The translations under genes were made by a program, and so were the position numbers. Below, in pieces: positions 31,263 through 64,000 of a stretch of DNA of 64,000 nt (the first letter of the stretch is position 1; the number at the start of each line of letters is the position of its first letter). The DNA is taken from positions 18,820 to 82,819 of the forward strand of contig CAIMUX010000080.1 in NCBI GenBank assembly GCA_903844735.1, in the 5' to 3' direction. Source of the stretch: Candidatus Eiseniibacteriota bacterium. Its GTDB lineage: Bacteria; Eisenbacteria; RBG-16-71-46; CAIMUX01. A model generated the notes under the pieces. The model did not search any database. It was given only the letters and a program-made list of their open reading frames with translations, and was not told the origin of the DNA.

Positions 31263-33178
<1,916 letters not shown>

Positions 33179-50296: not shown

Positions 50297-50518
50297 GCGG
50301 CGACTCCCCCCCGTCTCTGGTGCTCGGAGCGTGATCAACCTACATTGCTCTCACTAGGCTTTCGGCCACCCGGAGTGCGAGGTGAAGAAATCTTGGAATT
50401 GTGACCGGTCCACGCCTCCGCCTATGATGAAGAAAGTGGCCTCAGATGTGGTTTCCGTGCGCCGAGAGACGCGGACGACCAAGGATAGACGATGCTGCCG
50501 GCTCGCCACGGAGCCAGC

Positions 50519-50527
50519 GGGGGGGGG
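50519..50527. repeat. G9 homopolymeric tract in the 5' leader of cassette copy 1
   Basis: gcGGGGGGGGGcacgggaaggagatgcctGGTG; about 20 nt upstream of the GTG start. Confidence 0.6.
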
Positions 50528-50546
50528 CACGGGAAGGAGATGCCTG

Positions 50547-51797
50547 GTGACAGACCGATCGAATTTCCGCCGACAGGCGCCCGTCCGAGCGGTAGATCCT
50601 CCCCGCCTGTTCCTGCTCTTCGCCGTCCATCTCGTCTTGGCCGCGGTCGCGGTGTCGGCCAGACCTGCAAGCGCGCAGGGCTCCGCCCTGGTCGGAATCC
50701 CGGACTCGTCCGCGGTCGAGGCTCAGAACCTCCGGGCGATTGACACCCCGAACGATCGCGGCGAGAGCGTGAACCTCTCGTGGGAGCCGGCCGCGATAGA
50801 AGCGAAGGATCCCGCGGCGGTCTTTGGCTACGTCATCGAGCGTGCTGAGTCCACGGACGGGCCGTTCCGTGAAGTGGGGCGCGTTGTCGCCGGGACCCGG
50901 GAATTCGTCGAAGCCGACAGCCTCCGGGACGGGGTTGCCTACTTCTACCGGGTGCGCACCGAGCGGCCCGGCGGGGTCCTGAGCGGCGTGGCTGCGATCG
51001 CCGGGCCGGTGATCTCGAAGGGACAGCTCTTCGACAAGCGCAAGACGGTCACCTGCATCGCCACCGTCCTGTTCTGCCTCACTGTCGTCTGGCTGATCCA
51101 GCACGCGCGTCGGGGCAAGGCGATGTATATCCGACCGATCCCCGGGCTCTCGGCCGTGGACGAGGCGATAGGGCGCGCTACCGAGATGGGGCGGCCCATA
51201 CTCTTCGTCCCCGGGCTCGGGGGCTCCAGTGACGTCGCCACGCTGGCAGCCTTCACGCTTCTGGGGCGGGTCGGGCTCAAGACCGCCGAGTACCAGTCGT
51301 CGCTCATTGTTCCCTGCTACGACCCGATCGTCATGACCATCGCCCAGGAAATCGTGAAGTCGTCCTACCTGGGTGCGGGACGTCCGGAGATGTACCGGCA
51401 GGACGACGTCTTCTTTGTTACCCAGGACCAGTTCAGTTACACCGCGGCGGTCAACGGCATCATGTTGCGCGAGCGTCCGGCCACGAACTTCTACATCGGA
51501 AAGTTCTATGCCGAGAGCCTGGTGCTGGCCGAGACAGGCAACCTCGCCGGGTCGATCCAGATTGCGGGGACCGACGAGATCACCCAGATCCCTTTCTTCG
51601 TGGCAGCGTGCGACTACACCCTCATCGGCGAGGAGCTGTATGCGTCGAGCGCCTATCTTTCGCAGGAGCCACCGCTGCTCGGGACCCTCAAGGCCCAAGA
51701 CTACGCCAAAGCTGTGACGGTACTCGTGTTGATCCTCGGGGTCATTGCGGCACTTCTACACCATGACTGGTTCGTCAAACTGTTCCTCGTCGAGTAG
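50547..51797 (+). CDS. cassette protein A, copy 1: signal peptide – FN3-like domain – TM – conserved ~250-aa domain of unknown function – TM
   Basis: GTG start 6 nt after GGAAGGAGA. Signal RLFLLFAVHLVLAAVAVSA. FN3-like (NLSWEPA…GYVIERAESTDGPFREV…YFYRVRTE). Conserved core (IRPIPGLSAVDEAIGR.TEMG.P.L.VPG… AGTDEITQIPFFVAACDYTLIGEELYA) shared with 61465–62691. Confidence 0.6.
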   Translation: MTDRSNFRRQAPVRAVDPPRLFLLFAVHLVLAAVAVSARPASAQGSALVGIPDSSAVEAQNLRAIDTPNDRGESVNLSWEPAAIEAKDPAAVFGYVIERAESTDGPFREVGRVVAGTREFVEADSLRDGVAYFYRVRTERPGGVLSGVAAIAGPVISKGQLFDKRKTVTCIATVLFCLTVVWLIQHARRGKAMYIRPIPGLSAVDEAIGRATEMGRPILFVPGLGGSSDVATLAAFTLLGRVGLKTAEYQSSLIVPCYDPIVMTIAQEIVKSSYLGAGRPEMYRQDDVFFVTQDQFSYTAAVNGIMLRERPATNFYIGKFYAESLVLAETGNLAGSIQIAGTDEITQIPFFVAACDYTLIGEELYASSAYLSQEPPLLGTLKAQDYAKAVTVLVLILGVIAALLHHDWFVKLFLVE

Positions 51798-51806
51798 GGA
51801 GAAAGC

Positions 51807-52421
51807 ATGCAGCGATTGCTGCCCCGCATCATCACCTTCGTCTGTGGGATGTTCCTGGCCATCCAGTACTTCATTCCGCACAAGAGCTCTGAGAAGGTCT
51901 ACGAGACATCCATCGACTGGTTGATCATCGTGGGCGTCTTCGCCATCGTGCTTGGGATCCTCAGCCTGGTGACCGTCAACCTGGAGAAGATCCGGCGAAA
52001 GAGCGCGGGGTATCGGCACGCCTGGGTTCTCCTGGCCGGCCTGGTCTTTATGGTCGTGGCCGGGATCGTGACCGGGACGGGGCAGGACGGCCTCTTCCTG
52101 CGACTGGGGTATAACGCGATCCTAAACCCGATCACCGCGACGATGTTCGCGTTGCTGGCGTTCTACATCGCCTCGGCGGCGTACCGGGCTTTCCGCGCCC
52201 GCTCCGTCCTGGCCACCATTCTGCTGCTCTCGGCGATCATCGTGATGCTCGGGCGGGTGCCCGCGGGCGAGGTGATCCCGGGAATCCCGTGGCTGACCGA
52301 CTGGTTGATCAACGTTCCGAACATGGCAGCCAAGCGGGCGATCACCATCGGCCTCGGCCTGGGCGGGAGCGCGACGGCGCTCAAGATCGTGCTGGGCATC
52401 GAAGCCCCGCACCTTCGCTAG
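51807..52421 (+). CDS. cassette protein B, copy 1: ~205-aa polytopic (5–6 TM) membrane protein, unknown family
   Basis: GGGAGA RBS. Paralogous to 62729–63355 (shared STMFALLAFY.ASAA.RAFR.RSV… PNMAAKRAI.IGLGLG.SATALK.VLG.E). Confidence 0.6.
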   Translation: MQRLLPRIITFVCGMFLAIQYFIPHKSSEKVYETSIDWLIIVGVFAIVLGILSLVTVNLEKIRRKSAGYRHAWVLLAGLVFMVVAGIVTGTGQDGLFLRLGYNAILNPITATMFALLAFYIASAAYRAFRARSVLATILLLSAIIVMLGRVPAGEVIPGIPWLTDWLINVPNMAAKRAITIGLGLGGSATALKIVLGIEAPHLR

Positions 52422-52430
52422 GAGGATGCC

Positions 52431-53258
52431 GTGGCCCGCTTCAATATTCTCGAGCTCGACCGGCGCTTCATCTTCCTGATGATCTTTCTGTCGGTTCTGA
52501 CGCCGCTCTTCTTGCCGGCACCGAAGACTGTCAAGGTCTCTCCCGAGGTCAAGAAGGTCTACGACCGGATCGAGGCGCTCCCGGCCGGGTGCATCGTCAT
52601 GCTCGCCTGCGAGTACGACCCGTCGATGAGTGCGGAGATGTCGCCAGTGAACATGGTGGTGCTCCGGCAGTGCTTTCGCAAAAACCTCAGGGTGCTCACC
52701 ACCTGTCTGATGTCCAACGGGGTCTCCCTGGTGGAGAGCGAGATCAACCTTGTGGCTGCTGAGTACGACAAGAAGAACGGGGTCGACTATGTCTACCTCG
52801 GCTACAAGCCCTATCCAGCCGCGATCATCCTCGCCATGGGAGAGGATTTCCGGCTGGCCTTCCCCAGCGATTTCTACAACACTCGCCTCGACGACATCCC
52901 CATGATGAAGGGCGTGAAGAACTACCAGGACGTCTCGTTGGTCCTCGCCATCACCTCCACCAGCGGCATCGACTATTGGATCACTTACGGACAGGGTAGG
53001 TATCGCTTCCCTCTGGCGGCCGCCGCGAGCGCGGTGATGGCGCCCAATTACTACAACTACCTTGACTCGGGACAGCTCTTCGGACTCATCGGAGGCCTGC
53101 GCGGGGCGGCCGAGTATGAGCAACTGGCAAAGAAACCGGCCGCGGCCACCAAAGGCATGTTGGTGCAGTCGGTATCCCACTTGTTGATCGTCGGATTGAT
53201 CGTTCTCGGCAACGTCTCGTTCTTCGTCGCTCGCCGCCGCCGCCGCGGCCAGGAGTAG
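52431..53258 (+). CDS. cassette protein C, copy 1: bitopic protein (N- and C-terminal TM flanking a ~190-aa soluble domain), unknown family
   Basis: GTG start after AGGAGGA. Paralogous to the truncated ORF beginning at 63359 (shared …CEYDPS.SAE..P….VLR.CF.K..RVL…GEDF…FP.D.Y). Confidence 0.6.
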   Translation: MARFNILELDRRFIFLMIFLSVLTPLFLPAPKTVKVSPEVKKVYDRIEALPAGCIVMLACEYDPSMSAEMSPVNMVVLRQCFRKNLRVLTTCLMSNGVSLVESEINLVAAEYDKKNGVDYVYLGYKPYPAAIILAMGEDFRLAFPSDFYNTRLDDIPMMKGVKNYQDVSLVLAITSTSGIDYWITYGQGRYRFPLAAAASAVMAPNYYNYLDSGQLFGLIGGLRGAAEYEQLAKKPAAATKGMLVQSVSHLLIVGLIVLGNVSFFVARRRRRGQE

Positions 53259-53260
53259 TC

Positions 53261-53932
53261 ATGGATCCCGTCGAGATGCTCCTCCGCACGCTGGCCGTCT
53301 TCTTCACCATGGCCATCTTCTCCTTCCTCTGGAAGGACAACATGATCTACAAGTTCGCGGAGCACCTCGTAGTGGGGATCTCCATGGGGTACTGGTGTGT
53401 GATCCTCTACCAGACATCGTTCCTCTCCAAGATGTGGGGGCCGTTGACGCGGACGCTGGCCGGGCACCCCGAAGGGATGCCCGACCGACTCGTCTTTGTG
53501 CCGATCGCGCTGGGGCTCCTGCTATTCACTCGGTTCTTCCCGAAAATCTCGTGGCTGGCGCGCATCCCGATGGCGTTCATTCTCGGCGTAGGCTCTGGGG
53601 TGGCAATTCCTTTGGGGATCCAGGCCTCGGTGATCCAACAGATCCATCCCACGATGGCGGCGTTCCAACCGGCAACCTGGACCGGCGTCGGCTCGTGGTT
53701 CAACGCAATTCTGGTGCTGATGGGCGTGGTCTGCGGGCTAGCCTACTTCTTCTTCTCGGCGAAGCACACCGGGATCCTGGGCGGGATGTCGAAGATAGGG
53801 ATCTGGGTGCTCATGATCGGGTTCGGCGCCAGCTTCGGGTACACCGTGATGAGCAGGATCAGCCTGCTCTATGGCCGGGTGAACTACCTGGTGTTCGAGT
53901 GGGCAGGGCCGCTGGTGAGGGGACTGTTCTAG
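53261..53932 (+). CDS. cassette protein D, copy 1: ~223-aa 6-TM membrane protein, unknown family
   Basis: AGGAG RBS. Two-nt gap from protein C. Six hydrophobic segments. Confidence 0.55.
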   Translation: MDPVEMLLRTLAVFFTMAIFSFLWKDNMIYKFAEHLVVGISMGYWCVILYQTSFLSKMWGPLTRTLAGHPEGMPDRLVFVPIALGLLLFTRFFPKISWLARIPMAFILGVGSGVAIPLGIQASVIQQIHPTMAAFQPATWTGVGSWFNAILVLMGVVCGLAYFFFSAKHTGILGGMSKIGIWVLMIGFGASFGYTVMSRISLLYGRVNYLVFEWAGPLVRGLF

Positions 53933-53940
53933 CCGACCAT

Positions 53941-54714
53941 TCAACCCTTTCGGCTCACCACTGTCGCACCGGCCTGGCAGGTCGGCATCAGCACCATTTC
54001 CGCGACATTCATGTGGGCCGGACGGGTGATGGCGTAGACGACGGCATCCGCGACGTCATCTGGGGTCAATGGTGTGAGCCCCAGATAGACGCTCTTTGCC
54101 CTGGATTCGTCACCGTGGAACCGGACAAGGGAGAACTCGGTCTCCACCATGCCGGGGTCGACGGTCGTAACGCGAATTTCGGTGCCGTTCAAGTCGAGGA
54201 GCATCCCTTTTGAGATCGCCCGCTCCGCGAACTTTGATGCGCAGTAGACACTCCCTCCGGGGTACACCTCGCGGCCCGCGACGGAGCCGATGTTCACGAC
54301 ATGCCCGCGGTTTCGCACCACCATGCCGGGGATGACGGCACGGCTCACATAGAGCAGTCCCTTCACGTTCGTGTCGAGCATCTCCTCCCAGTCTTGGAGC
54401 AGTCCCTCGTGGAACTTGTTAAGTCCACGGGAGAGACCGGCGTTGTTGACGAGGATGTCGATGGCCGCCCACTCCGGCGGCAAGGCACGCACCATCGCCT
54501 CTACGTCCGGCTGCCTGCGGACATCGAGGGAAGAGGTCAGCACATCGAGGCCATGGGCGGCGCGGATCTCTTCGGCGAGAACGTCGACGCGGTCCAGGCG
54601 CCGAGCGGCGAGGAGGAGGCGGGCCCCTTCGACGGCGAGCGCGCGGGCGATGGAGCGGCCGATGCCGCTGCTGGCTCCGGTGACGAATGCCGTGCGGCCG
54701 TCGAGACGCTTCAT
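53941..54714 (-). CDS. short-chain dehydrogenase/reductase (classical SDR)
   Basis: TGASSGIGRSIA cofactor motif, NNAG, catalytic YCASKFA. Confidence 0.85.
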   Translation of the reverse strand: MKRLDGRTAFVTGASSGIGRSIARALAVEGARLLLAARRLDRVDVLAEEIRAAHGLDVLTSSLDVRRQPDVEAMVRALPPEWAAIDILVNNAGLSRGLNKFHEGLLQDWEEMLDTNVKGLLYVSRAVIPGMVVRNRGHVVNIGSVAGREVYPGGSVYCASKFAERAISKGMLLDLNGTEIRVTTVDPGMVETEFSLVRFHGDESRAKSVYLGLTPLTPDDVADAVVYAITRPAHMNVAEMVLMPTCQAGATVVSRKG

Positions 54715-54816
54715 GAACGGAACTCCTGTCTTTGGCGCCGTCAGATCCCGGCGGAGAGTGCGACGCGAGGCTGTCTGCTTCGTGATGGTTCCTGTCAGTC
54801 GTGGCGGATCCGGCGA

Positions 54817-56361
54817 TCAAGGCGGGTCGAGCGGTCCGCGGGCGCGAGCCCGGCCATCCAGCAGGGTGAAGGGGAGAACATCCTGACGCCGCTGCCGATC
54901 CTCAGAAGCAAGGACGTCCAGCAACGAGCGCTGATCCCACGTTTCTCGCAATCCACGCGTGACATCGAAGACCAGCGTGTCGACCGTGGCCGCGGCGCTG
55001 GCGGCATGGGCGTCGAGCGGAGTGCCGACCCGACCGCCCCGAGCTGGACTGCCGGAGGCGGGGCCGCCAACCGAGGAACCGGAGGAAGCGGCGGCGTGGC
55101 TCCCACCGGGATCACGGCCTCCAGCGGCCATGCCGCCGGGCGGTCCCGTGAGGCTGGCGTAGACATCGAACACGCTGATCTTTTCCGGGTTGCGTGCCGG
55201 GACCAGGATCATCTCGCGGCGACCGGTGGCGACCTGGTGAAGCACACCGCCGTCGACCAGTGTTTCGGCCACGGTGCGCACGAGGCGCAGCGGTAGTCTC
55301 AGCCGGCGCGCCAGGTTGGTCAGCTCCGGCGGGTCGAGCTCATCGCGGTAGCAGCGAACGGCCTCGAGCGCGACATGCATGCCGGCACGGAAGCGCTCCT
55401 CCAGTCCTGCCTTGGCGGCGCCGACCTCCAGCCGGAAATCCTGCGCCGCCTCGCGGGCGAACGCGAGCTGCGCGCCAAAGAGTACCACCAGCCAACTGAC
55501 ATAAACCCAGATGAGAAAAAACGGGACCGCAGCCAGGGCGCCGTAAAGGGTGCCATAGTGAACAGCGGTGCGCATGTAGGCGCCATACCCGAGCTTCAGG
55601 ATCTCCCAGAGCGTGCCCGCCACCAACCCGGCGGGCAGTGAGGCGCGCAGGCTAACCCGCACATTGGGCAGAATCGTGTATACCAGCGTGAAAGCGATGC
55701 CGGTGAGGAGCGCGGGCGCCAGTTGAAAGACGACGCCGAGGAGTGTCTCGAATCCGGTCGGGAAGGAAGCCAGCCAGTTCTGGAGCGCGAGAGTCTCGAG
55801 GCTGGCGGTGGCCGAGAGCGAGAGGCCGATGAGGATGGGCCCGAACACCACCAGGGTGGTGTAGATGGAAAACCGCTGGAAGAGCGAACGGCCGCGGTGT
55901 ACCCCCCAGATGTCGTTGAATGCCTGTTCCAGCGAGCCGAGCAGCCCGACGACAGCTCCGGCGAGCACCAGGATGGAGACCTCCCGGAAGGCCCCTCGAT
56001 CGGCCGCCGCGAAGAAGGACCGCAGCCACTCCTGCACTTGGCCCTGACTCCCCGGGGCCAAATTGACGACCAGGAAGTCCTCGACCTGCTGCCGCAGTCC
56101 TTCAAGGGCACCAAAGGCACGGAAGACCGAGAGAGCCAGGACGAGGACCGGCCCCAGGGTGAGGAGCGTCGTGAAGGTCATGGCCGAGGCGCGCAACTGG
56201 ATGCGTCCACGCGCCAGGCCGGTGGCGAAGATCACCGTCACTCGGAGCTGCCGGAAGGCCCATCGTTGCAGTCGCGAGACCGCCAAGATGTCGGGCTCCC
56301 AGATGCGGTGACGCAGGAGGTCGGTCGCATGTCTGCGCCAAGTGTGGATTCGTGCGTTCAT
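54817..56361 (-). CDS. YihY/BrkB family membrane protein with ~180-aa C-terminal extension
   Basis: YihY-type 6-TM core (…FTTLLTLGPVLVLALSVF…LYGALAAVPFFLIWVYVSWLVVLFGA…) followed by a soluble C-terminal domain and a G/S/A-rich tail. Confidence 0.7.
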   Translation of the reverse strand: MNARIHTWRRHATDLLRHRIWEPDILAVSRLQRWAFRQLRVTVIFATGLARGRIQLRASAMTFTTLLTLGPVLVLALSVFRAFGALEGLRQQVEDFLVVNLAPGSQGQVQEWLRSFFAAADRGAFREVSILVLAGAVVGLLGSLEQAFNDIWGVHRGRSLFQRFSIYTTLVVFGPILIGLSLSATASLETLALQNWLASFPTGFETLLGVVFQLAPALLTGIAFTLVYTILPNVRVSLRASLPAGLVAGTLWEILKLGYGAYMRTAVHYGTLYGALAAVPFFLIWVYVSWLVVLFGAQLAFAREAAQDFRLEVGAAKAGLEERFRAGMHVALEAVRCYRDELDPPELTNLARRLRLPLRLVRTVAETLVDGGVLHQVATGRREMILVPARNPEKISVFDVYASLTGPPGGMAAGGRDPGGSHAAASSGSSVGGPASGSPARGGRVGTPLDAHAASAAATVDTLVFDVTRGLRETWDQRSLLDVLASEDRQRRQDVLPFTLLDGRARARGPLDPP

Positions 56362-56501
56362 GAAGCCGCGATTCTAGCCGAAAGCCGAGCGCCGGGTCGA
56401 GCAGGGATGACGGGCGCGCGGGCAAGCCACACGGGAAGGGGCGGGTGGCGCCTCGTCGCCCGGCCCACAGCTCGGCGTCCTCCAGCCCGACGCCCGACGC
56501 C

Positions 56502-56528
56502 CGAAGTCCGAAGCCCGAAGTCCGAAGC
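56502..56528. repeat. tandem GAAGTCCGAAGCCCGAAGTCCGAAGCC (reverse complement of the GGCTTCGGACTTCGGGCTTC box)
   Basis: Sits in the divergent spacer between YihY and the second FGE lipoprotein gene. Related to the box inside the 6-kb and 59.9-kb elements. Confidence 0.4.
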
Positions 56529-56625
56529 CGGTCTTATTCCTTCCAAGCTCCGAACCTCAGGCCTCTTTGCGGTCCTTGCACCAACGCGATCCTCCCGTAG
56601 AATCTCGACAGGAGGTGTGCCGCCC

Positions 56626-58566
56626 ATGAGACGACTCTTTGCAACCACGGTCATCGTGATGGCCCTGGCCGGCTGTGGCGGTGACAAGCCGCTCATCAAG
56701 TTCGTCAACACGCCGCCGGAAGCGGCGCTCACTGCCGACCCGGACACCCTGGCCTTGGCAGACAGCTCGATTGTCACCTGCCTGGTCGGCGATCCCGACT
56801 CGGATGTCCTTACGTTTCGTTGGAGTGCCAGCGCCGGGCGCTTCATCCGGCGCGATCCGTCGATGTCACAGGTTTCCTGGATCGCCCCGGCCGTGGAAGG
56901 CGTGGACACCATCCGCGTCACGGTTTTCGACAACACCGACTCGGTCGAGGCTGTGGTGTGTGTGACGGTGGTCGGGCACACCGGCACGGTCCTCGGCGTC
57001 GTGAAAGATGGGACATCCGGAGAGGGCCTGGCCGGCGCGCGGCTCGAGATCGCCGGGCGAGTCGGAACCTCGGGCATCAAGGGCTTCTTCCGTCTCGAGC
57101 TTGTGCCGCCGGGTGTCGACACCCTCCATGCCACACGAGATGGGTACGAGCCATATGCCCAGCTCCTGCCCGTGCGGGAGGGAACGAACGAACTGGAAAT
57201 TCCGCTGCAGCGGGCCGCGCCCAGGGCGCGCCTTTTCGGCGAGGTGACCAATGGCCACGGTCAGGCCGTGGCCGGCGCCGTCTGCGGCGTGGGGGAGGAC
57301 GAAGTATCTACCGACGCCACGGGACAGTATGACTTTGCCGGGGTGCCGGTGGGTCTTCGGGTGCTGCGGGTTCGGGCTGATGGATTCTACCCGTTTCAGG
57401 ACACTGTGGATGTCCAGCAGCCGGAAGTCCGATTCGACATCGTCCTGCACGCGGCGCCGCCTGCTCCCCCCGAGGGACAGCTCACGGTGACGAAGCTTGC
57501 CGACTATCGGCTGCGGGTAAGCTGGGTCCCGCAAAATCCGTCCGCGGCGATCGCCGGCTTCAACCTCATCATGATTGCGAGCGGCGAGAGCCAGGGGTTG
57601 CCGGAGCCAGTTCCCGGCGGGCCGCTTCTTCGAAGCGGCGGCACTCGAGAGGTGATAGGAGCCGAGGACGGCCGGTACCGGTTCGCCGTGGCCGCCGTGA
57701 GGAGCGACGGGGTGGTGGGGGCGGCCACGCCTTACACCCCGATCGCCGTGCTCACACAGCCGAGCTCTCTGGTAAACGTGCCGGCGGGGCCGGTGATCAT
57801 GGGTTCCTATCCCGGTGACTATGGCAGCGAGGTGCATCCGGGAAACCCGATTCAGGTCCAGGCCTTCGCCATCGAAGCGCGTGAGGTGACCAATCGCCAG
57901 GTCGTGGCTTTCCTTGTAGAAGCGCTGGCGCAAGGCCTCGTGCAGGTAGGCGACCTCGCGGTGCGGGCCGGTGCGGATACGCTGCTCTTCTTCTCGGGGA
58001 GCCAGGTTGACCGCGACCCGCTCAACGACGGTTTCTCCGTGCCTCCGGGGTTGAAGGACTACCCGGTGACGGGCATCACCTGGTTCGGCGCCGACGCTTA
58101 TGCTCGCTGGTATGGGCGGCGGCTGCCGAAGGAATCTGAGTGGGAGAAGGCGGCACGCGGCACAGCCGATTCCACCGGTATCTACCCAGGGACCACGGTT
58201 GGCGTGGGAACGATGTATCCGTGGGGCAGGGCGCTGCCGTCCGTGGAGCGCGCCAACTGCCAAAGCCTCTTCGGTGGAAAGCGACCGGTCGGCTCTTTCC
58301 CTGACGGCGCGGCGCTGTGGTGGGGCACGCCGGTCTATGACCTCGCGGGGAATGTCTGGGAGTGGTGTGACGACTGGTTTGCGGCGTACGCCAACCCGCA
58401 CCAGCCTCCGGCAATCGGGTCGCGCAGAGTGGTGCGCGGCGGCGCCTGGGATGGCTCGGACGCGGAGATCCGGGTCGGCCACCGGTGGTTTGTCGCGCCC
58501 GCGCTGAAAAGCACCAAGATCGGTTTTCGGTGCGCTGCGGACCCGGCGAAGGATGCGCCGGGCTAG
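56626..58566 (+). CDS. lipoprotein with Ig-like/CarboxypepD_reg-like and FN3-like domains and C-terminal FGE-sulfatase domain; GldJ/GldK/PorK-like
   Basis: Lipobox LAG-C. GGAGG RBS. Two beta-sandwich modules (GTVLGVVKDGTSGEGLAGARLEI… / LFGEVTNGHGQAVAGAVCGV…). FGE-sulfatase motifs (YPVTGITWFGADAYARWYGRRLPKESEWE…RVVRGGAWD). Confidence 0.8.
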   Translation: MRRLFATTVIVMALAGCGGDKPLIKFVNTPPEAALTADPDTLALADSSIVTCLVGDPDSDVLTFRWSASAGRFIRRDPSMSQVSWIAPAVEGVDTIRVTVFDNTDSVEAVVCVTVVGHTGTVLGVVKDGTSGEGLAGARLEIAGRVGTSGIKGFFRLELVPPGVDTLHATRDGYEPYAQLLPVREGTNELEIPLQRAAPRARLFGEVTNGHGQAVAGAVCGVGEDEVSTDATGQYDFAGVPVGLRVLRVRADGFYPFQDTVDVQQPEVRFDIVLHAAPPAPPEGQLTVTKLADYRLRVSWVPQNPSAAIAGFNLIMIASGESQGLPEPVPGGPLLRSGGTREVIGAEDGRYRFAVAAVRSDGVVGAATPYTPIAVLTQPSSLVNVPAGPVIMGSYPGDYGSEVHPGNPIQVQAFAIEAREVTNRQVVAFLVEALAQGLVQVGDLAVRAGADTLLFFSGSQVDRDPLNDGFSVPPGLKDYPVTGITWFGADAYARWYGRRLPKESEWEKAARGTADSTGIYPGTTVGVGTMYPWGRALPSVERANCQSLFGGKRPVGSFPDGAALWWGTPVYDLAGNVWEWCDDWFAAYANPHQPPAIGSRRVVRGGAWDGSDAEIRVGHRWFVAPALKSTKIGFRCAADPAKDAPG

Positions 58567-59032
58567 GAAAGCGAGCGGATTCGATGTCGGAGCAGAGCGC
58601 CTGTGAATCATGCGGGTTTGGCCGCGCAGCGAATCGAAGGAGAAAAGTGTGAGGGTCCGGGGCTCCGGCGTTTGACTCAGTCGCGCGAAGCGGATGCTGA
58701 CCTCGGGGGCGGCGCCTTTCGATGTGTGCCCTGCTGCGTATCCCAGCCTGCCCCAGTGGAGGTGTCGATACCACGGACCCTCAGCTCGACCGAACGCGGA
58801 GCATTTGTCTCTCGCGTTCAGTCCCTAGATCGGTTCGGGCTGGGCATCACTTGAGCCTCCCGTGCGATGAAAACGAAGAGGATCCCGAGTGGCGAACGAA
58901 AGAAGCCGGGCTTGCGGTGAACGGCAGTGCATCGTGCGTGCGGGTCGTGCTGCATGCACGAAGGGTGGCTGCGCGCCGTCAGCCCGGAGTGGCGGATTCG
59001 GAGTCGTAGCAGAGCGGAAGGAACAATGCGGG

Positions 59033-59788
59033 TCAGCCCGCCACCGTCCCCCCGAGGTGCCGCCGCATCGTGGCCAGCGCCAGGGAGAGGTGCTTCTCCA
59101 ACCCGTCGATTGGCTCATCCGCGGGCTCGAAGATGACGAAGAGAAGCCCGGTGGTCGCTTCGGTAACTCTCGTGCGGGCGGAATCGGCCGAAGGGTTGCC
59201 GAAAGGACCGAGGCGGTCAAGGAGCGCGGGGCGTCCCTCTAGGTGGATCATCTCCTTGCCGATGCCGGGGTATTCCTCGGTCGCCGTCCCCAGCCGTAGA
59301 GTGACCACCGAGACGCCTGGATCGGGACGACCGTTCGCTTCGCTCGCGTCCACCGGGTGGACCTTGTCCGCGTCGTAGAGCCCCACCGGTCGCAGAATCG
59401 ACATCGAGGCCAGGTTCGCCGCGTCGACCGCTGTGTTAACGCGCGCGAGTCCCTTCCCCTGAAGGACACGCCGGACCAGCGCCTCCGATGAGGGACGCAC
59501 TTTGGAGGGGTCGAGCCCACAGGCGTGATACATCCGCCGTGCAGCGGAGAAGGCCGGCAAGGCCGCGGCCGGGTCCGGGTAGTGCGCCATCAACTCGCCG
59601 CCGCGGGTGGACAGCTCTTGCTGCAAGGCGTCCGATTTCGGGCGAACGGTCACACCCTGAAGCGCGAACCAGGTGGGGTGGATGCGGTCGGCCAACAGGT
59701 TCCGGATGATCCAGTGCACGGGGCCTCCTTGGACGGGACGGTAGGATCTGACCTGGGTAGTTGTACGACCTTCCGCCGCCGTGGTCAA
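59033..59788 (-). CDS. B3/4 domain-containing protein
   Basis: Similarity to the B3/B4 tRNA-binding-like domain (…RPSSEALVRRVLQGKGLARVNTAVDAANLASMSILRPVGLYDADKV…VVTLRLG…GKEMIHLEGRP…). Confidence 0.55.
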   Translation of the reverse strand: MTTAAEGRTTTQVRSYRPVQGGPVHWIIRNLLADRIHPTWFALQGVTVRPKSDALQQELSTRGGELMAHYPDPAAALPAFSAARRMYHACGLDPSKVRPSSEALVRRVLQGKGLARVNTAVDAANLASMSILRPVGLYDADKVHPVDASEANGRPDPGVSVVTLRLGTATEEYPGIGKEMIHLEGRPALLDRLGPFGNPSADSARTRVTEATTGLLFVIFEPADEPIDGLEKHLSLALATMRRHLGGTVAG

Positions 59789-59899
59789 CCCGCCAAGTCA
59801 ACCCAGCGAGAACTCCGGGCGCGCCGGCGGATGTCTCTCCCCACGGCGAGGACGGCCCGCCCACCGGCGGGGGGTATCTCCTTGCTGCAGACCACGCAT

Positions 59900-60019
59900 C
59901 TGAGATTCAGAGGCTTCGGACTTCAACTCTCGGCCACCAGAAACGGCTTGACGCTCTCCGGCCCGAAGCCCGAGGCCTGAAGCCCGATGCCAGTCAAATT
60001 CGTTCCCTCCGAATCTCAG
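59900..60019. promoter_or_regulatory. conserved non-coding element copies 2 and 3 in the divergent spacer between the B3/4 gene and the TSUP gene
   Basis: Minus-strand copy TTCGTTCCCTCCGAATCTCAG at 59999–60019 plus CCAGAAACGGCTTG at 59936–59949, oriented toward the B3/4 gene. Plus-strand partial copy CTGAGATTCAGAGGCTTCGGACTTC at 59900–59924, oriented toward TSUP. Confidence 0.5.
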
Positions 60020-60120
60020 CACGCGCACAAGCGGTGGTATCTCCGAGCCTGACCCGCTACGATGGGGCGTTCGCCGCAAAAACCGCGGCCGACGGTCGTT
60101 GGCAGATGCAGTGAAGGCAG

Positions 60121-60915
60121 ATGAACACTCTTACCGCCCAGAATCTCCACTGGTTTCTCTTCTCCGGGGCGGCCGCCGGCTTCTTCGGCTCGATTCTGGG
60201 CGTGGGCGGCGGGATCATTCTTGTCCCTCTTCTGGTGCTCGTTTTTCATATCCCGATGCACTTTGCGATCGGGACCAGCATCATGACGGTCATCGCTACG
60301 TCGAGCATGGCCGGGACGTTCAACCTGGAACGCGGTACCGTGAACATTCGGCTCGGGATGGTCCTCGAGGTGGCGACCGCCATCGGCGCGCTCTTCGGCG
60401 GGACGCTCGCCGGGCTCGTCCGGGGAGACGTCCTAACTGTGGTCTTCGGAGGCATACTCCCGCCCATCGCCTGGCTGATGTGGCGAAAAGGGAACGAACG
60501 GCGTCCGGCTGGACCGATCTCGGAAACCGACTACCAGATGCGCCGCCTGCCATTAGCGATGGGGATGTCGCTGGGCGCAGGGACGGTCTCCGGACTTCTT
60601 GGCATTGGTGGCGGGATCATCAAGGTTCCGGTCATGACAGTCTTTTGCGGCATTCCGGCGAAGATCGCCACGGCTACTTCGACGTTCATGATCGGTGTGA
60701 CCGCGGTGGCGAGCGCCTTCCTCTATTTCGGACGCGGGCAGGTTCGGCCCGCCATGACGGCAGTGGTGGTGTTGGGCGTGCTGGGGGGCAGCGCCACCGG
60801 CACCCAGGTGGCGAAGCGACTCCACAGCAACCATCTCATCAGGCTCTTCGCGGTTCTGTTGAGCCTTGCGGCGGTACAGATGGTGTATCGCGGCATCAAG
60901 GGGTTGACCCATTGA
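60121..60915 (+). CDS. TSUP (TauE/SafE) family anion exporter
   Basis: Two-repeat 4+4 TM architecture with GxGGG motifs (ILGVGGGIILVPLL / LLGIGGGIIKVPVM). Confidence 0.85.
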   Translation: MNTLTAQNLHWFLFSGAAAGFFGSILGVGGGIILVPLLVLVFHIPMHFAIGTSIMTVIATSSMAGTFNLERGTVNIRLGMVLEVATAIGALFGGTLAGLVRGDVLTVVFGGILPPIAWLMWRKGNERRPAGPISETDYQMRRLPLAMGMSLGAGTVSGLLGIGGGIIKVPVMTVFCGIPAKIATATSTFMIGVTAVASAFLYFGRGQVRPAMTAVVVLGVLGGSATGTQVAKRLHSNHLIRLFAVLLSLAAVQMVYRGIKGLTH

Positions 60916-61307
60916 TGGAGAAGAAGAGCCTCCTCGACAGGATCTATCGCGAAGTCGACGCCCGGGCCAGCCAGGGAGACCACGCCGAGAAGCCGGCCCG
61001 CCGAGCCCTACTCACCGGGGTCTTCTTGAGTGCCGCGATGCTTGCGGTGGGTCTATGGATCGTGTGGATCCGGCAAGAGGCGCGGCCCAACGAGCCACCG
61101 GCGCTGTCGGAGATCACGCGCGGGCTTCAGCAGGGGCGCGGCACCTCTCTTCTCTACGCAGGTCTGCTGTTTCTCGCGGCCACGCCGATCCTGCGGGTGG
61201 TGGTGATGGTGGGCGTGTATCTCCGTCGCCGCGAACTCTTCATGGCTGCGGTCTCGATCATCGTTCTCGGGCTGCTGGCGGTCGGCGTGCTGATGGGGTC
61301 CGGGTGA
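60915..61307 (+). CDS. DUF1634 membrane protein (usual TSUP partner)
   Basis: Start ATG overlaps the TSUP stop (TGATG). Three predicted TMs. Sequence characteristic of DUF1634. Confidence 0.65.
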   Translation: MEKKSLLDRIYREVDARASQGDHAEKPARRALLTGVFLSAAMLAVGLWIVWIRQEARPNEPPALSEITRGLQQGRGTSLLYAGLLFLAATPILRVVVMVGVYLRRRELFMAAVSIIVLGLLAVGVLMGSG

Positions 61308-61452
61308 GGGCGGCTCGACCGGCGGCTTGGTTGGCGGCGCCATTGGCAGATCGGTTCGTTGCCAGATGCGCTGTTTCGCGGGTATCCTATGTGGGGCCGG
61401 CGCGCCAGCGGGCGACGCGGGGACCGGGAGAAACGGCGGGAAGGTCACGACC

Positions 61453-61461
61453 GGGGGGGGG
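61453..61461. repeat. G9 homopolymeric tract in the 5' leader of cassette copy 2
   Basis: gaccGGGGGGGGGccgATG; 3 nt upstream of the ATG. Confidence 0.6.
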
Positions 61462-61464
61462 CCG

Positions 61465-62691
61465 ATGGGGGAGATAGTTGCGACGCTGACCGCCCGTCGT
61501 TCGTTCGTAGGTTCGCTCTGCTTTCTCGCAGTGCTGTCTCTGTTCCTCCTGCCGGCATCGGCCTGGGCTGTGGAGCCGGCCTTGGACCTCACCGTGAAGG
61601 ACAAGCCACTCGACGCGGGCGAGGTGCTCAAGATCGCATTCAGCCGCGCGTCCGGTGATTCCCTCGGCCGCACGGGGATCGTCCGTTACGAGCTGCTGCG
61701 GCAAGCCCCGGGCGAGGCGGTCTTCAAGGTTGCTCGCTCCTTTGCCGCCAGCCAGAGGCTCGGCCGGTTCACGTACGACGACACCGGGCTCAAGCCAGGG
61801 AAGCACTACCAGTACAAGGTCCGCACCGTCGGCGCTGATGGCTTTACCGCCGAAACCGCCCCCTGCCCACCCACAGCGCCGCGGCGGCAATGGTTCTTCA
61901 CCAACAAGCTCAATACCCTTGTGGCCACGGCGATCTTCTGCGCCTTTGTTCTCGGCTTCATCCACGCGGCACGCCGGGGGCGGCCGATGTTCATTCGCCG
62001 CATCGCCGGACTTGACGCCATCGACGAGGCGGTCGGCCGCTGCACCGAAATGGGCAAGCCGACGCTGTATGTTCCGGGTATCAGCACGATATCGGACGTG
62101 GCCACCATTGCCAGCCTGAACATTCTCGGGCAGGTGGCGAAGAAGATAGCCCAGTACCAGACTCGCATTCTCGTGCCCAATCGGGACCCCATCGTCTTCC
62201 CGGTGGCCCAGGACGTGGTGAAGGAAGCGTTCATCGAGGCCGGCTATCCCCACAACTACCGAAGTGATGACGTTTACTTTGTCACCAACGATCAGTTCGC
62301 CTACGCTGCCGCCGTCTGCGGCACCATGGTGCGCGAGAAGCCCGGGGCCAACCTCTTCCTCGGCATGTTCTACGCCGAATCGCTGGTGCTGGCGGAGACC
62401 GGCGCCTCGGTGGGGGCGATTCAGATCGCCGGCACCGACGCCATCTCGCAGTTGCCGTTCTTCGTGACCGCTTGCGACTACACCATCATCGGTGAGGAGC
62501 TCTACGCAGCCAGCGCCTACATCGGGCGTGAGCCGACGCTGTTGGGCACACTCAAGGGGCAGGACCTTTTCAAGATGGTCTGCCTCGGGGTCATCTGCCT
62601 GGGGGTTCTCCTCATGACACTCGGGGTGATTTTCCGGGGCAAGCCCTACGACGACATCCTTCAGCTCATCACCGTAAGGTCCGGGTCATGA
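61465..62691 (+). CDS. cassette protein A, copy 2 (paralogue of 50547–51797)
   Basis: Signal SLCFLAVLSLFLLPASAWA. FN3-like segment. Same conserved core (FIRRIAGLDAIDEAVGRCTEMGKP.LYVPG… AGTDAISQLPFFVTACDYTIIGEELYAAS). G9 tract immediately upstream. Confidence 0.6.
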   Translation: MGEIVATLTARRSFVGSLCFLAVLSLFLLPASAWAVEPALDLTVKDKPLDAGEVLKIAFSRASGDSLGRTGIVRYELLRQAPGEAVFKVARSFAASQRLGRFTYDDTGLKPGKHYQYKVRTVGADGFTAETAPCPPTAPRRQWFFTNKLNTLVATAIFCAFVLGFIHAARRGRPMFIRRIAGLDAIDEAVGRCTEMGKPTLYVPGISTISDVATIASLNILGQVAKKIAQYQTRILVPNRDPIVFPVAQDVVKEAFIEAGYPHNYRSDDVYFVTNDQFAYAAAVCGTMVREKPGANLFLGMFYAESLVLAETGASVGAIQIAGTDAISQLPFFVTACDYTIIGEELYAASAYIGREPTLLGTLKGQDLFKMVCLGVICLGVLLMTLGVIFRGKPYDDILQLITVRSGS

Positions 62692-62728
62692 CGGCGCGGC
62701 CGCAGTTCATCACCGAGAGGTCCGGGTC

Positions 62729-63355
62729 ATGAAGACGCAGATCCCGCTCCTCATCTGCCTGGTGGCCGGGCTCTTCATGGGCTTGCAGTACTTCATCCCG
62801 GCGGCGTTGCCGGTCTACAACCGCGTGAACGACTACATCCAGGTGGTGACGGCGTTCTCGCTGGTGCTCGGGGTGGTCAACCTCATCCACCGACACATCG
62901 GGCGCATGCGGCCGAGCGGCCCACAGCGGCGGCGGCACAGGGACTGGCCATTTAGTCTCGCGGCGCTCGTCGGTCTGGTTGTCATGCTGTTTGCGGGGTT
63001 CGGGACCCAGCGCGGACCGATCTTCCAGTCGCTCTTCAACTCGATCCTCCTGCCGGTCCAATCGACGATGTTTGCGCTTCTGGCCTTCTACCTCGCGTCC
63101 GCGGCGTTCCGCGCCTTCCGCGTGCGCAGCGTGGACGCGGTGGTGCTGCTGGTGTCGGCGGTTGTGGTGATGGTTGGACGACTCGACGATGGCGGCGCCC
63201 TCGGGATTCCCTGGCTGTCACGGCAGATCCTCAACGGCCCGAACCTGGTGGCCAAGCGCGCCATCATCCTCGGGGTCGGACTCGGGATGGCCGCGACCGC
63301 TCTCAAGGTGGTGCTGGGGCTGGAACGGTCCTACCTCGGGTCGGGAAAGGAGTAG
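62729..63355 (+). CDS. cassette protein B, copy 2
   Basis: Paralogue of 51807–52421; 5–6 TMs. Confidence 0.6.
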   Translation: MKTQIPLLICLVAGLFMGLQYFIPAALPVYNRVNDYIQVVTAFSLVLGVVNLIHRHIGRMRPSGPQRRRHRDWPFSLAALVGLVVMLFAGFGTQRGPIFQSLFNSILLPVQSTMFALLAFYLASAAFRAFRVRSVDAVVLLVSAVVVMVGRLDDGGALGIPWLSRQILNGPNLVAKRAIILGVGLGMAATALKVVLGLERSYLGSGKE

Positions 63356-63358
63356 GCC

Positions 63359-64000
63359 GTGACAACCGTTGACCTGCTCCAGAGGTTACTGGTCCTGGAC
63401 CGGAGAATCATCTACGCCCTGCTCCTGGTCTGCGCGGTGGTGCCGTTCTACATGAACTGGCCGCCGATCAAGATGGAGGTCTCGAAAGAGACCCAGGACG
63501 CCTACGACGCCATCGACGCCATTCCGCCCGACGGGAACCCGCTGGTGCTCTCCTTCGACTACGACCCGGCCTCCGCGGCGGAGCTGACGCCGATGGCCGA
63601 AGCTGTGCTCCGGCACTGCTTCGCCAAGAAGATCCGCGTGCTCGGGATCAGCCTGCAGTACAGCGGCCAGGGAGCCGGGATCGCCGCGGAGGTGATGCCG
63701 CGGATCGCGCGCGAGTTCGGCCGCGAGCAGAATGTCGACTGGGCGTTCATGGGCTTCCAGCCGAATGCCGTGGTCGCCATGCTCCAGATGGGCGAAGACT
63801 TCAAGAAGACGTTTCCGACCGACTACTACGGCACGGCCGTCGACAAGATAGCGCTCATGGAGAACATCCAGAACTACGACCAGGTGCCGGCCGTGCTCAC
63901 GCTGGCCGGGACCGCCGTGGCCGAGAGCTGGGTGACCTATCCCGGCATGCGCTACGGCGTGACGATCCTGACCGGCCTGACCGCCGTCTATGTCGCCGAC
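63359..64000 (+). CDS. cassette protein C, copy 2 (3' truncated by window end)
   Basis: GTG start 3 nt after the B2 stop. Translation VTTVDLLQRLLVLDRRIIYALLLVCAVVPFY… paralogous to 52431–53258. No stop before the window end. Confidence 0.55.
   Translation, partial: MTTVDLLQRLLVLDRRIIYALLLVCAVVPFYMNWPPIKMEVSKETQDAYDAIDAIPPDGNPLVLSFDYDPASAAELTPMAEAVLRHCFAKKIRVLGISLQYSGQGAGIAAEVMPRIAREFGREQNVDWAFMGFQPNAVVAMLQMGEDFKKTFPTDYYGTAVDKIALMENIQNYDQVPAVLTLAGTAVAESWVTYPGMRYGVTILTGLTAVYVAD

Follow-up and report, generated by a model that had tools for sequence, protein, structure and literature searches.

Two runs of nine guanines (G9) stand in front of a pair of paralogous operons in an uncultured bacterium, and they raise the question whether these operons are subject to phase variation. 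The runs lie in a stretch of 64,000 nucleotides (nt) from Candidatus Eiseniibacteriota bacterium (assembly GCA_903844735.1, contig CAIMUX010000080.1), referred to below as the window, and were found at 50519-50527 and 61453-61461, exactly where a first-pass annotation had reported them. Each run precedes a four-gene cassette, in which a gene A is followed by genes B, C and D for three multi-pass membrane proteins; the runs are named here after the first genes, A1 and A2. The annotation proposed slipped-strand phase variation, in which a changing number of Gs would alter the spacing of the ribosome-binding site or the strength of the promoter. Our analysis points to another explanation: the two runs are, on balance, probably independent, lineage-specific instances of G-rich translation-initiation sequence and not homologous copies of a regulatory repeat. 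Of the proposed phase variation, slippage-proneness at one site at most is left, and a regulatory switch is not. No functional phase variation is proven, and the anatomy lends it no support.

Gene A of each cassette codes for a signal peptide, an FN3-like domain (FN3/titin matches), a transmembrane segment and DUF6754 (Pfam, E = 9e-118 for A1), and the A1 protein shares 48% identity with the A2 protein. The proteins encoded by B, C and D gave no Pfam matches. The start codons of A1 and A2 could be fixed because of the N-termini of their orthologues. Three A1 orthologues from sister species (P0007, P0008 and P0012, 83-89% identity) begin with M/V-T-D/V-R at the codon corresponding to GTG 50547, and L017 has an in-frame stop codon just 5' of the A1 start, followed by MGYDRS. 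The A2 orthologues P0126-P0137 start with MG(V/L)G. The true starts are thus located downstream of both runs, and therefore both runs lie in 5' untranslated regions (UTRs), outside the open reading frames (ORFs). In some assemblies the genes were called as 434 or 441 amino acids (aa) long, using upstream ATGs. The possibility that the G run is coding sequence of such an N-terminal extension was rejected, given the orthologue N-termini and an upstream ATG that is not conserved.

Upstream of both cassettes, sigma-70-like promoter sites were identified (Table 1). The promoter search upstream of A1 returned two sites, compared to 0.0 in shuffled sequences, and for cassette 2 no promoter-like sites are expected in shuffles either. 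The runs are found ~85 nt (A1) and ~58 nt (A2) downstream of the inferred transcription starts. Because they lie downstream of conserved promoter-like sites, they belong to the 5' UTR and not to a promoter spacer. Homopolymers between or beside the -35 and -10 hexamers are well known from Neisseria porA (poly-G) and opc (poly-C) and from Bordetella fim (poly-C). The present runs are like these in that G/C runs stand 5' of envelope-protein genes, and unlike them in that both lie downstream of the predicted -10 elements.

The two runs also differ in their relation to the Shine-Dalgarno sequence (SD). The first-pass annotation described them as sitting at the same place in front of both operons, which is imprecise: at A1 the run precedes the SD and ends 19 nt before GTG 50547, and at A2 it takes up the SD position, 3 nt (CCG) before ATG 61465. 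Since it precedes the SD, the A1 run is unable to alter the spacing between SD and start codon. At A2 the gap between run and ATG is fixed at 3 nt. With promoters and transcription starts placed as inferred here, a change of one G alters neither promoter spacing nor SD-to-start spacing, and the mechanism put forward for the switch does not fit this anatomy.

The A2 leader reads, from 5' to 3', GGGAAGG, 8 nt, the G run, CCG and ATG. In the window the site is ACC-GGGGGGGGG-CCG-ATG, and in the sister species L180, which has a 91%-identical orthologue, it is ACC-GAGGGGGA-CCG-ATG. The more distant L020 has GGGGGGAGG-CGC-ATG. Because GAGGGGGA and GGGGGGAGG occupy the same position in the orthologues, the A2 run can be regarded as an all-G variant of a purine-rich SD. 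Indeed, it is purine-rich, lies 4-12 nt before a verified start and is positionally conserved in orthologues. We infer from the aligned leaders that the A2 run would act as the SD itself, in an all-G form of the sister-species sequence. A pure G9 contains no A, and its pairing to CCUCC would require G-U wobble.

In the A1 leader, the order from 5' to 3' is a predicted hairpin, the G run, CAC, the SD GGGAAGGAG, 7 nt and GTG. The run extends from -28 to -20 and is thus outside the usual SD window. The AAGGAG of the A1 SD was kept in all five sequences aligned (5/5), and the hairpin arms are conserved in L177 and L178. At the site of the run itself, sister species have G6 (L177), G6 (L178) and G3 (L179, GGGCGCG). 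These alignments suggest that a G-rich segment between the conserved hairpin and the SD may have grown from G3/G6 to G8/G9. The run may serve as an auxiliary or standby ribosome-contact site, and a homopolymer of this length would be prone to replication slippage or mis-assembly. Pairwise alignment of the A1 and A2 leaders revealed CGGGAAGG as the sole shared motif, with the A1 run upstream and the A2 run downstream of it. Homology of the two leaders was rejected, as the runs lie on opposite sides of this only shared motif.

Neither run is kept at its length outside the species. The run at the A2 site in sister species is G5, and runs of at least 7 were absent from the leaders of all 80 DUF6754 loci examined from other species (0/80). 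In this stretch, gene starts in general are preceded by long G runs more often than expected. A run of at least 6 G just 5' of the start was found in 4 of the 27 called genes, compared to 0.25 expected (35-nt leader; for A1, GTG 50547 and not the start of the 434-aa call was taken as reference). Runs of G form part of the SD elsewhere as well, namely G7AG at the GGDEF-EAL gene, G6AGAG at a protease gene, G5AGGAG at D2 and G5 at an FGE-sulfatase gene. The G7 of the GGDEF-EAL gene is invariant in five assemblies and is G5-G6 in L177 and L178. The G9 runs are probably an ordinary feature of this kind. They are like known G-rich or extended SDs in that the A2 run precedes its ATG at the position of GAGGGGGA in the orthologue and of GGGGGGAGG in L020, and in that G5-G7 with a subsequent AG(G) serves as the SD of several further genes in the window. 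They are unlike them in that A2 is a pure G9 and the A1 run lies outside the usual SD window; the roles proposed here are read from sequence and stay putative.

The number of such runs is also unremarkable. The window has a GC content of 65%, and contrary to the first-pass annotation, which had noticed no other 9-nt homopolymer, a third one is present: C9 at 31961-31969, corresponding to G9 on the coding (minus) strand of gyrB. Since this essential gene contains one, G9-type runs are tolerated in this organism. Altogether three G9/C9 runs were counted in 64 kb, and 3.29 ± 2.85 were expected from dinucleotide-preserving shuffles, of which 56 out of 100 contained at least three. Long runs are thus no more numerous in the 64 kb than composition predicts (3 vs 3.29, one of the three being in gyrB). 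Because the count matches the shuffles, only the placement is notable. Judged by local G content, the chance of a run of at least 9 is ~0.9% in the A1 leader (G 0.37) and ~4% in the A2 leader (G 0.48). The claim that the arrangement is unlikely to be chance therefore fails for the number of runs and is borne out nominally for their placement (~4e-4, calculated post hoc). The A2 leader consists of 48% G and 2% T, and we attribute part of the co-occurrence to the strong G bias of the leaders here.

Run length was then compared across the consensus sequences of independent metagenome assemblies covering the same loci. The A1 run is G8 in L001, L003, L004, L005 and L016 and G9 in the window only (1/6 assemblies). 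It is the sole difference of any kind between the window and L001 (14,354 bases) and between the window and L016 (5,162 bases), and the more diverged strains, with 5-14 single-nucleotide polymorphisms (SNPs) relative to the window, also have G8. The A2 run is G9 in 7/7 sequences (the window and six independent contigs), without insertions or deletions (indels). A length difference between assemblies, the kind of check named by the first-pass annotation, was thus seen at A1, where it may be an assembly error, and not at A2. G8 is the species state at A1, and G9 is a singleton. Likewise, the 416-aa A1 product of the G9 type was found on a single contig (94,820 bp) in the protein collection. Scans of JGI metagenomes and GTDB for further contigs of the same species gave other species only (≤71% amino-acid identity).

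Homopolymers are the commonest sites of indel errors, and the G9 of the window could be a sequencing or assembly error in a species that has G8 and no biological length variation at either site. This is in line with G8 in all five other assemblies, which range from 0 up to 14 SNPs relative to the window, and with the restriction of the 416-aa product to one contig. However, no other indel was found between the window and the overlapping contigs across 21 kb, and the other homopolymers of at least 6 bases in this region were invariant (9/9), among them the A2 G9, which is just as long, and the C7 of 50306-50312. Moreover, the sibling assembly of the same sources (ENA/JGI/NCBI) has G8, and no systematic bias is visible. 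An error is a possible but unlikely explanation. The difference between G8 and G9 in otherwise identical sequences would arise because a homopolymer slips or is mis-assembled; between consensus sequences such as these, it may stem from one genuine slippage event or from an error of assembly. Since only one of six assemblies differs and the diverged strains all have G8, a single event or a single error suffices.

The sole discrete effect of G8 versus G9 at A1 concerns the frame of the upstream ATG at 50492. This allows for a translational frameshift switch, in which G8 would yield the 434-aa, N-terminally extended protein and G9 an out-of-frame upstream ORF that interferes with A1. Indeed, the 434-aa form is called in all G8 contigs, AAGGA is located 6 nt 5' of this ATG, and in the G9 state its frame crosses the A1 SD and start. 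However, the ATG is not conserved (ATT in L177, missing in L179), the orthologues start at the GTG-equivalent codon, the stop codon of L017 stands in frame just 5' of that start, and a strong, conserved SD serves GTG 50547. Genuine initiation at the ATG at 50492 is improbable. We consider the frame effect a gene-calling artefact and the frameshift switch most improbable.

Possible effects of run length on the folding of the leaders were modelled for G5-G12 variants of both, starting at the inferred transcription starts. The predicted unpaired probability of the SD ranged over these lengths from 0.15 to 0.35 at A1 and from 0.74 to 0.93 at A2, and the start codons were similarly unaffected. In these models a change in run length would shift the accessibility of SD and start codon only slightly, and a one-G change at A1 probably has little effect on expression. 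A G-quadruplex within the run was predicted only at G11 or longer and was rejected, as none was predicted at G8-G10. The fold stability of the leaders is not unusual (z = +0.68 for A1, z = +0.75 for A2), and no Rfam family was hit in the leaders at the gathering threshold or with a meaningful E-value. A stable leader acting as a structured cis-regulatory RNA was rejected on these grounds (no Rfam hits, z ~ +0.7), and a known RNA family or riboswitch beside the GGDEF-EAL gene was rejected for want of an Rfam match.

Graded phase variation at the messenger RNA (mRNA) level has been described for uspA1 of Moraxella catarrhalis, where a G(n) run lies upstream of the ORF; its length variants occur within populations and change the mRNA more than 20-fold (PMC7302503). 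By analogy, A1 and perhaps A2 could be a true contingency locus, with slippage in the leader grading mRNA or translation of the DUF6754 operon. The similarities are a poly-G of comparable length (8-12), a position upstream of a surface-protein ORF and, at A1, an apparent one-unit difference between strains. Both runs also reach the length of about 7-8 or more G/C (A1 G9 or G8, A2 G9) above which such runs slip at a high rate, a threshold taken from PMC7302503 and general knowledge, and 8-9 G is the low end of reported phase-varying lengths (PMC7302503). The difference at A1 within otherwise identical sequences of 14.3 kb and 5.2 kb, the envelope or surface location of the products, the nominally improbable occurrence of a run in both paralogous operons and the leader position of the uspA1 run itself speak in the same direction. 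Unlike uspA1, however, the present case consists of one between-assembly difference at one site, and the run is missing in sister species. Neither run lies in an ORF or, with the promoters inferred here, in a promoter spacer. The invariant A2 run (7/7), the single deviating assembly at A1 with G8 in all more diverged strains, an SD spacing not set by the runs, the absence of such runs from sister species (G6, G6, G3, G5) and from 80 loci of other species, the absence of an excess of long runs with a further G9 in gyrB, and the nearly flat modelled accessibility all argue against a contingency locus, which we judge quite unlikely. A working uspA1-like rheostat at A1, possibly also at A2, in which one-G slippage in the 5' UTR tunes a DUF6754 envelope complex in Candidatus Eisenbacteria, is very unlikely.

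Several observations count against the interpretation as G-rich translation-initiation sequence. Among near-identical assemblies the A1 run gives the one indel, which is the behavior of a hypermutable site, and the gene products belong to the envelope and carry an extracytoplasmic FN3 domain, a class of protein that often phase-varies. Two of the three 9-mers of the window sit in the leaders of paralogous operons, the joint chance for both leaders being ~4e-4 if they are independent, a post hoc and nominal figure, and both runs were expanded in the same species. The effect on expression is a modelled one that starts from an inferred transcription start. The window contains no rRNA, so that the 16S anti-SD sequence of the organism is absent from it; a standard anti-SD is implied, because other genes carry canonical SDs of the GGAGG type.

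If the ordinary reading holds, the lesson is one for annotation: one G more or less in a 5' UTR homopolymer made gene callers predict the same protein at lengths of 416, 434 and 386 aa. Where a genome has 65% GC, a run of G beside a start codon should be read as a contingency locus only if read-level data support it. In such read data, the gyrB G9 could serve as an internal standard for homopolymer error or slippage. If the contingency reading were true, simple-repeat phase variation would reach into an environmental phylum that is uncultured, and the uncharacterised four-gene membrane cassette with DUF6754 would gain a first point of entry into its regulation. A true rheostat would be a rare case of contingency-locus behavior in a free-living, non-pathogenic lineage.

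Table 1. Features of the two cassette leaders and of related G runs in the window.
Feature	Coordinates	Strand	Remarks
Sigma-70-like promoter, cassette 1 (inferred)	50399..50428	+	TTGTGA-18-TATGAT; TATGAT block invariant in sister species
Upstream ATG	50492..50494	+	In frame with A1 only at G8; source of the 434-aa gene calls
Predicted hairpin	50495..50520	+	GGCUC / GAGCC core; adjoins A1 run; predicted fold
A1 poly-G run	50519..50527	+	G9 in window; 5' UTR, 3 nt upstream of SD
A1 SD	50531..50539	+	GGGAAGGAG; 7 nt 5' of GTG; invariant in the three closest alignments
A1 gene	50547..51797	+	Start GTG at 50547; signal peptide, FN3-like domain, transmembrane segment, DUF6754
Sigma-70-like promoter, cassette 2 (inferred)	61359..61388	+	TTGCCA-18-TATCCT; both hexamers identical in L180
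Second SD-like element	61438..61444	+	GGGAAGG; A2 leader, 8 nt 5' of run; kept in L180
A2 poly-G run	61453..61461	+	At SD position (-12 to -4), then CCG, then ATG at 61465
A2 gene	61465..62691	+	Start ATG at 61465; DUF6754 paralogue
G7 run, SD of divergent MASE1-PAS-GGDEF-EAL gene	50306..50312	-	GGGGGGGAG; 7 nt before its ATG
gyrB G9 run	31961..31969	-	Codons GGG GGG GGG; gyrB by Pfam

The two cassettes extend over 50547-53932 and 61465-64000, the second continuing in L007 to about 12138. A gene with an FGE-sulfatase domain precedes each of them by a few kb, a hint that a larger segment may have been duplicated. The cassette is widespread in Eisenbacteria, Zixibacteria, Ignavibacteria, WOR-3 and TA06, and the DUF6754 family in Zixibacteria, Ignavibacteria and related lineages. 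Among genomes, the nearest relatives are metagenome-assembled genomes of Candidatus Eisenbacteria (65-71% identity). A literature search for DUF6754 retrieved no paper mentioning the family.

At the A2/B2 junction (62662-62743), a 41-nt tandem duplication (78% identity) contains two copies of GGTCCGGGTCATGA. It creates, between the stop of A2 and the start of B2, a mini-ORF of 14 codons (ATG ACG ... TCA TGA) with an ATGA overlap at either end. The duplication is present in all assemblies of the same species; in the sister species L180, stop and start simply overlap as ATGA.

The intergenic region between the MASE1-PAS-GGDEF-EAL gene and A1 (50339-50546) is unusually conserved across sister species, with a mean column identity of 82-87% where protein identity is 82-89%. 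Long invariant blocks include GGTGAAG..AAT..TGGAATTG and CCTATGATG. The region had no Rfam match, and it may contain regulatory sites shared by the divergent cyclic di-GMP gene and the cassette.

Further G runs were observed in the window and in related sequences. In the 21 kb covered by other assemblies, the three G/C runs of at least 7 are all sense-oriented and located in translation-initiation regions (3/3), and the syntenic 21-kb locus of the sister species L179 has no run of this length. In L177 (1599-1606), the A1 orthologue has a G8 within the sequence coding for the signal peptide (…AAGGAS…), so that the place where long G runs arise in the 5' regions of this gene family differs from species to species. 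The gyrB G9 (31961-31969, minus strand) encodes Gly-Gly-Gly immediately before an LPGKLADC motif and is a frameshift-prone run in an essential gene. Between two minus-strand genes, the intergenic DNA at 2228-2235 holds a G8 run, which reads as C8 on the strand of these genes.

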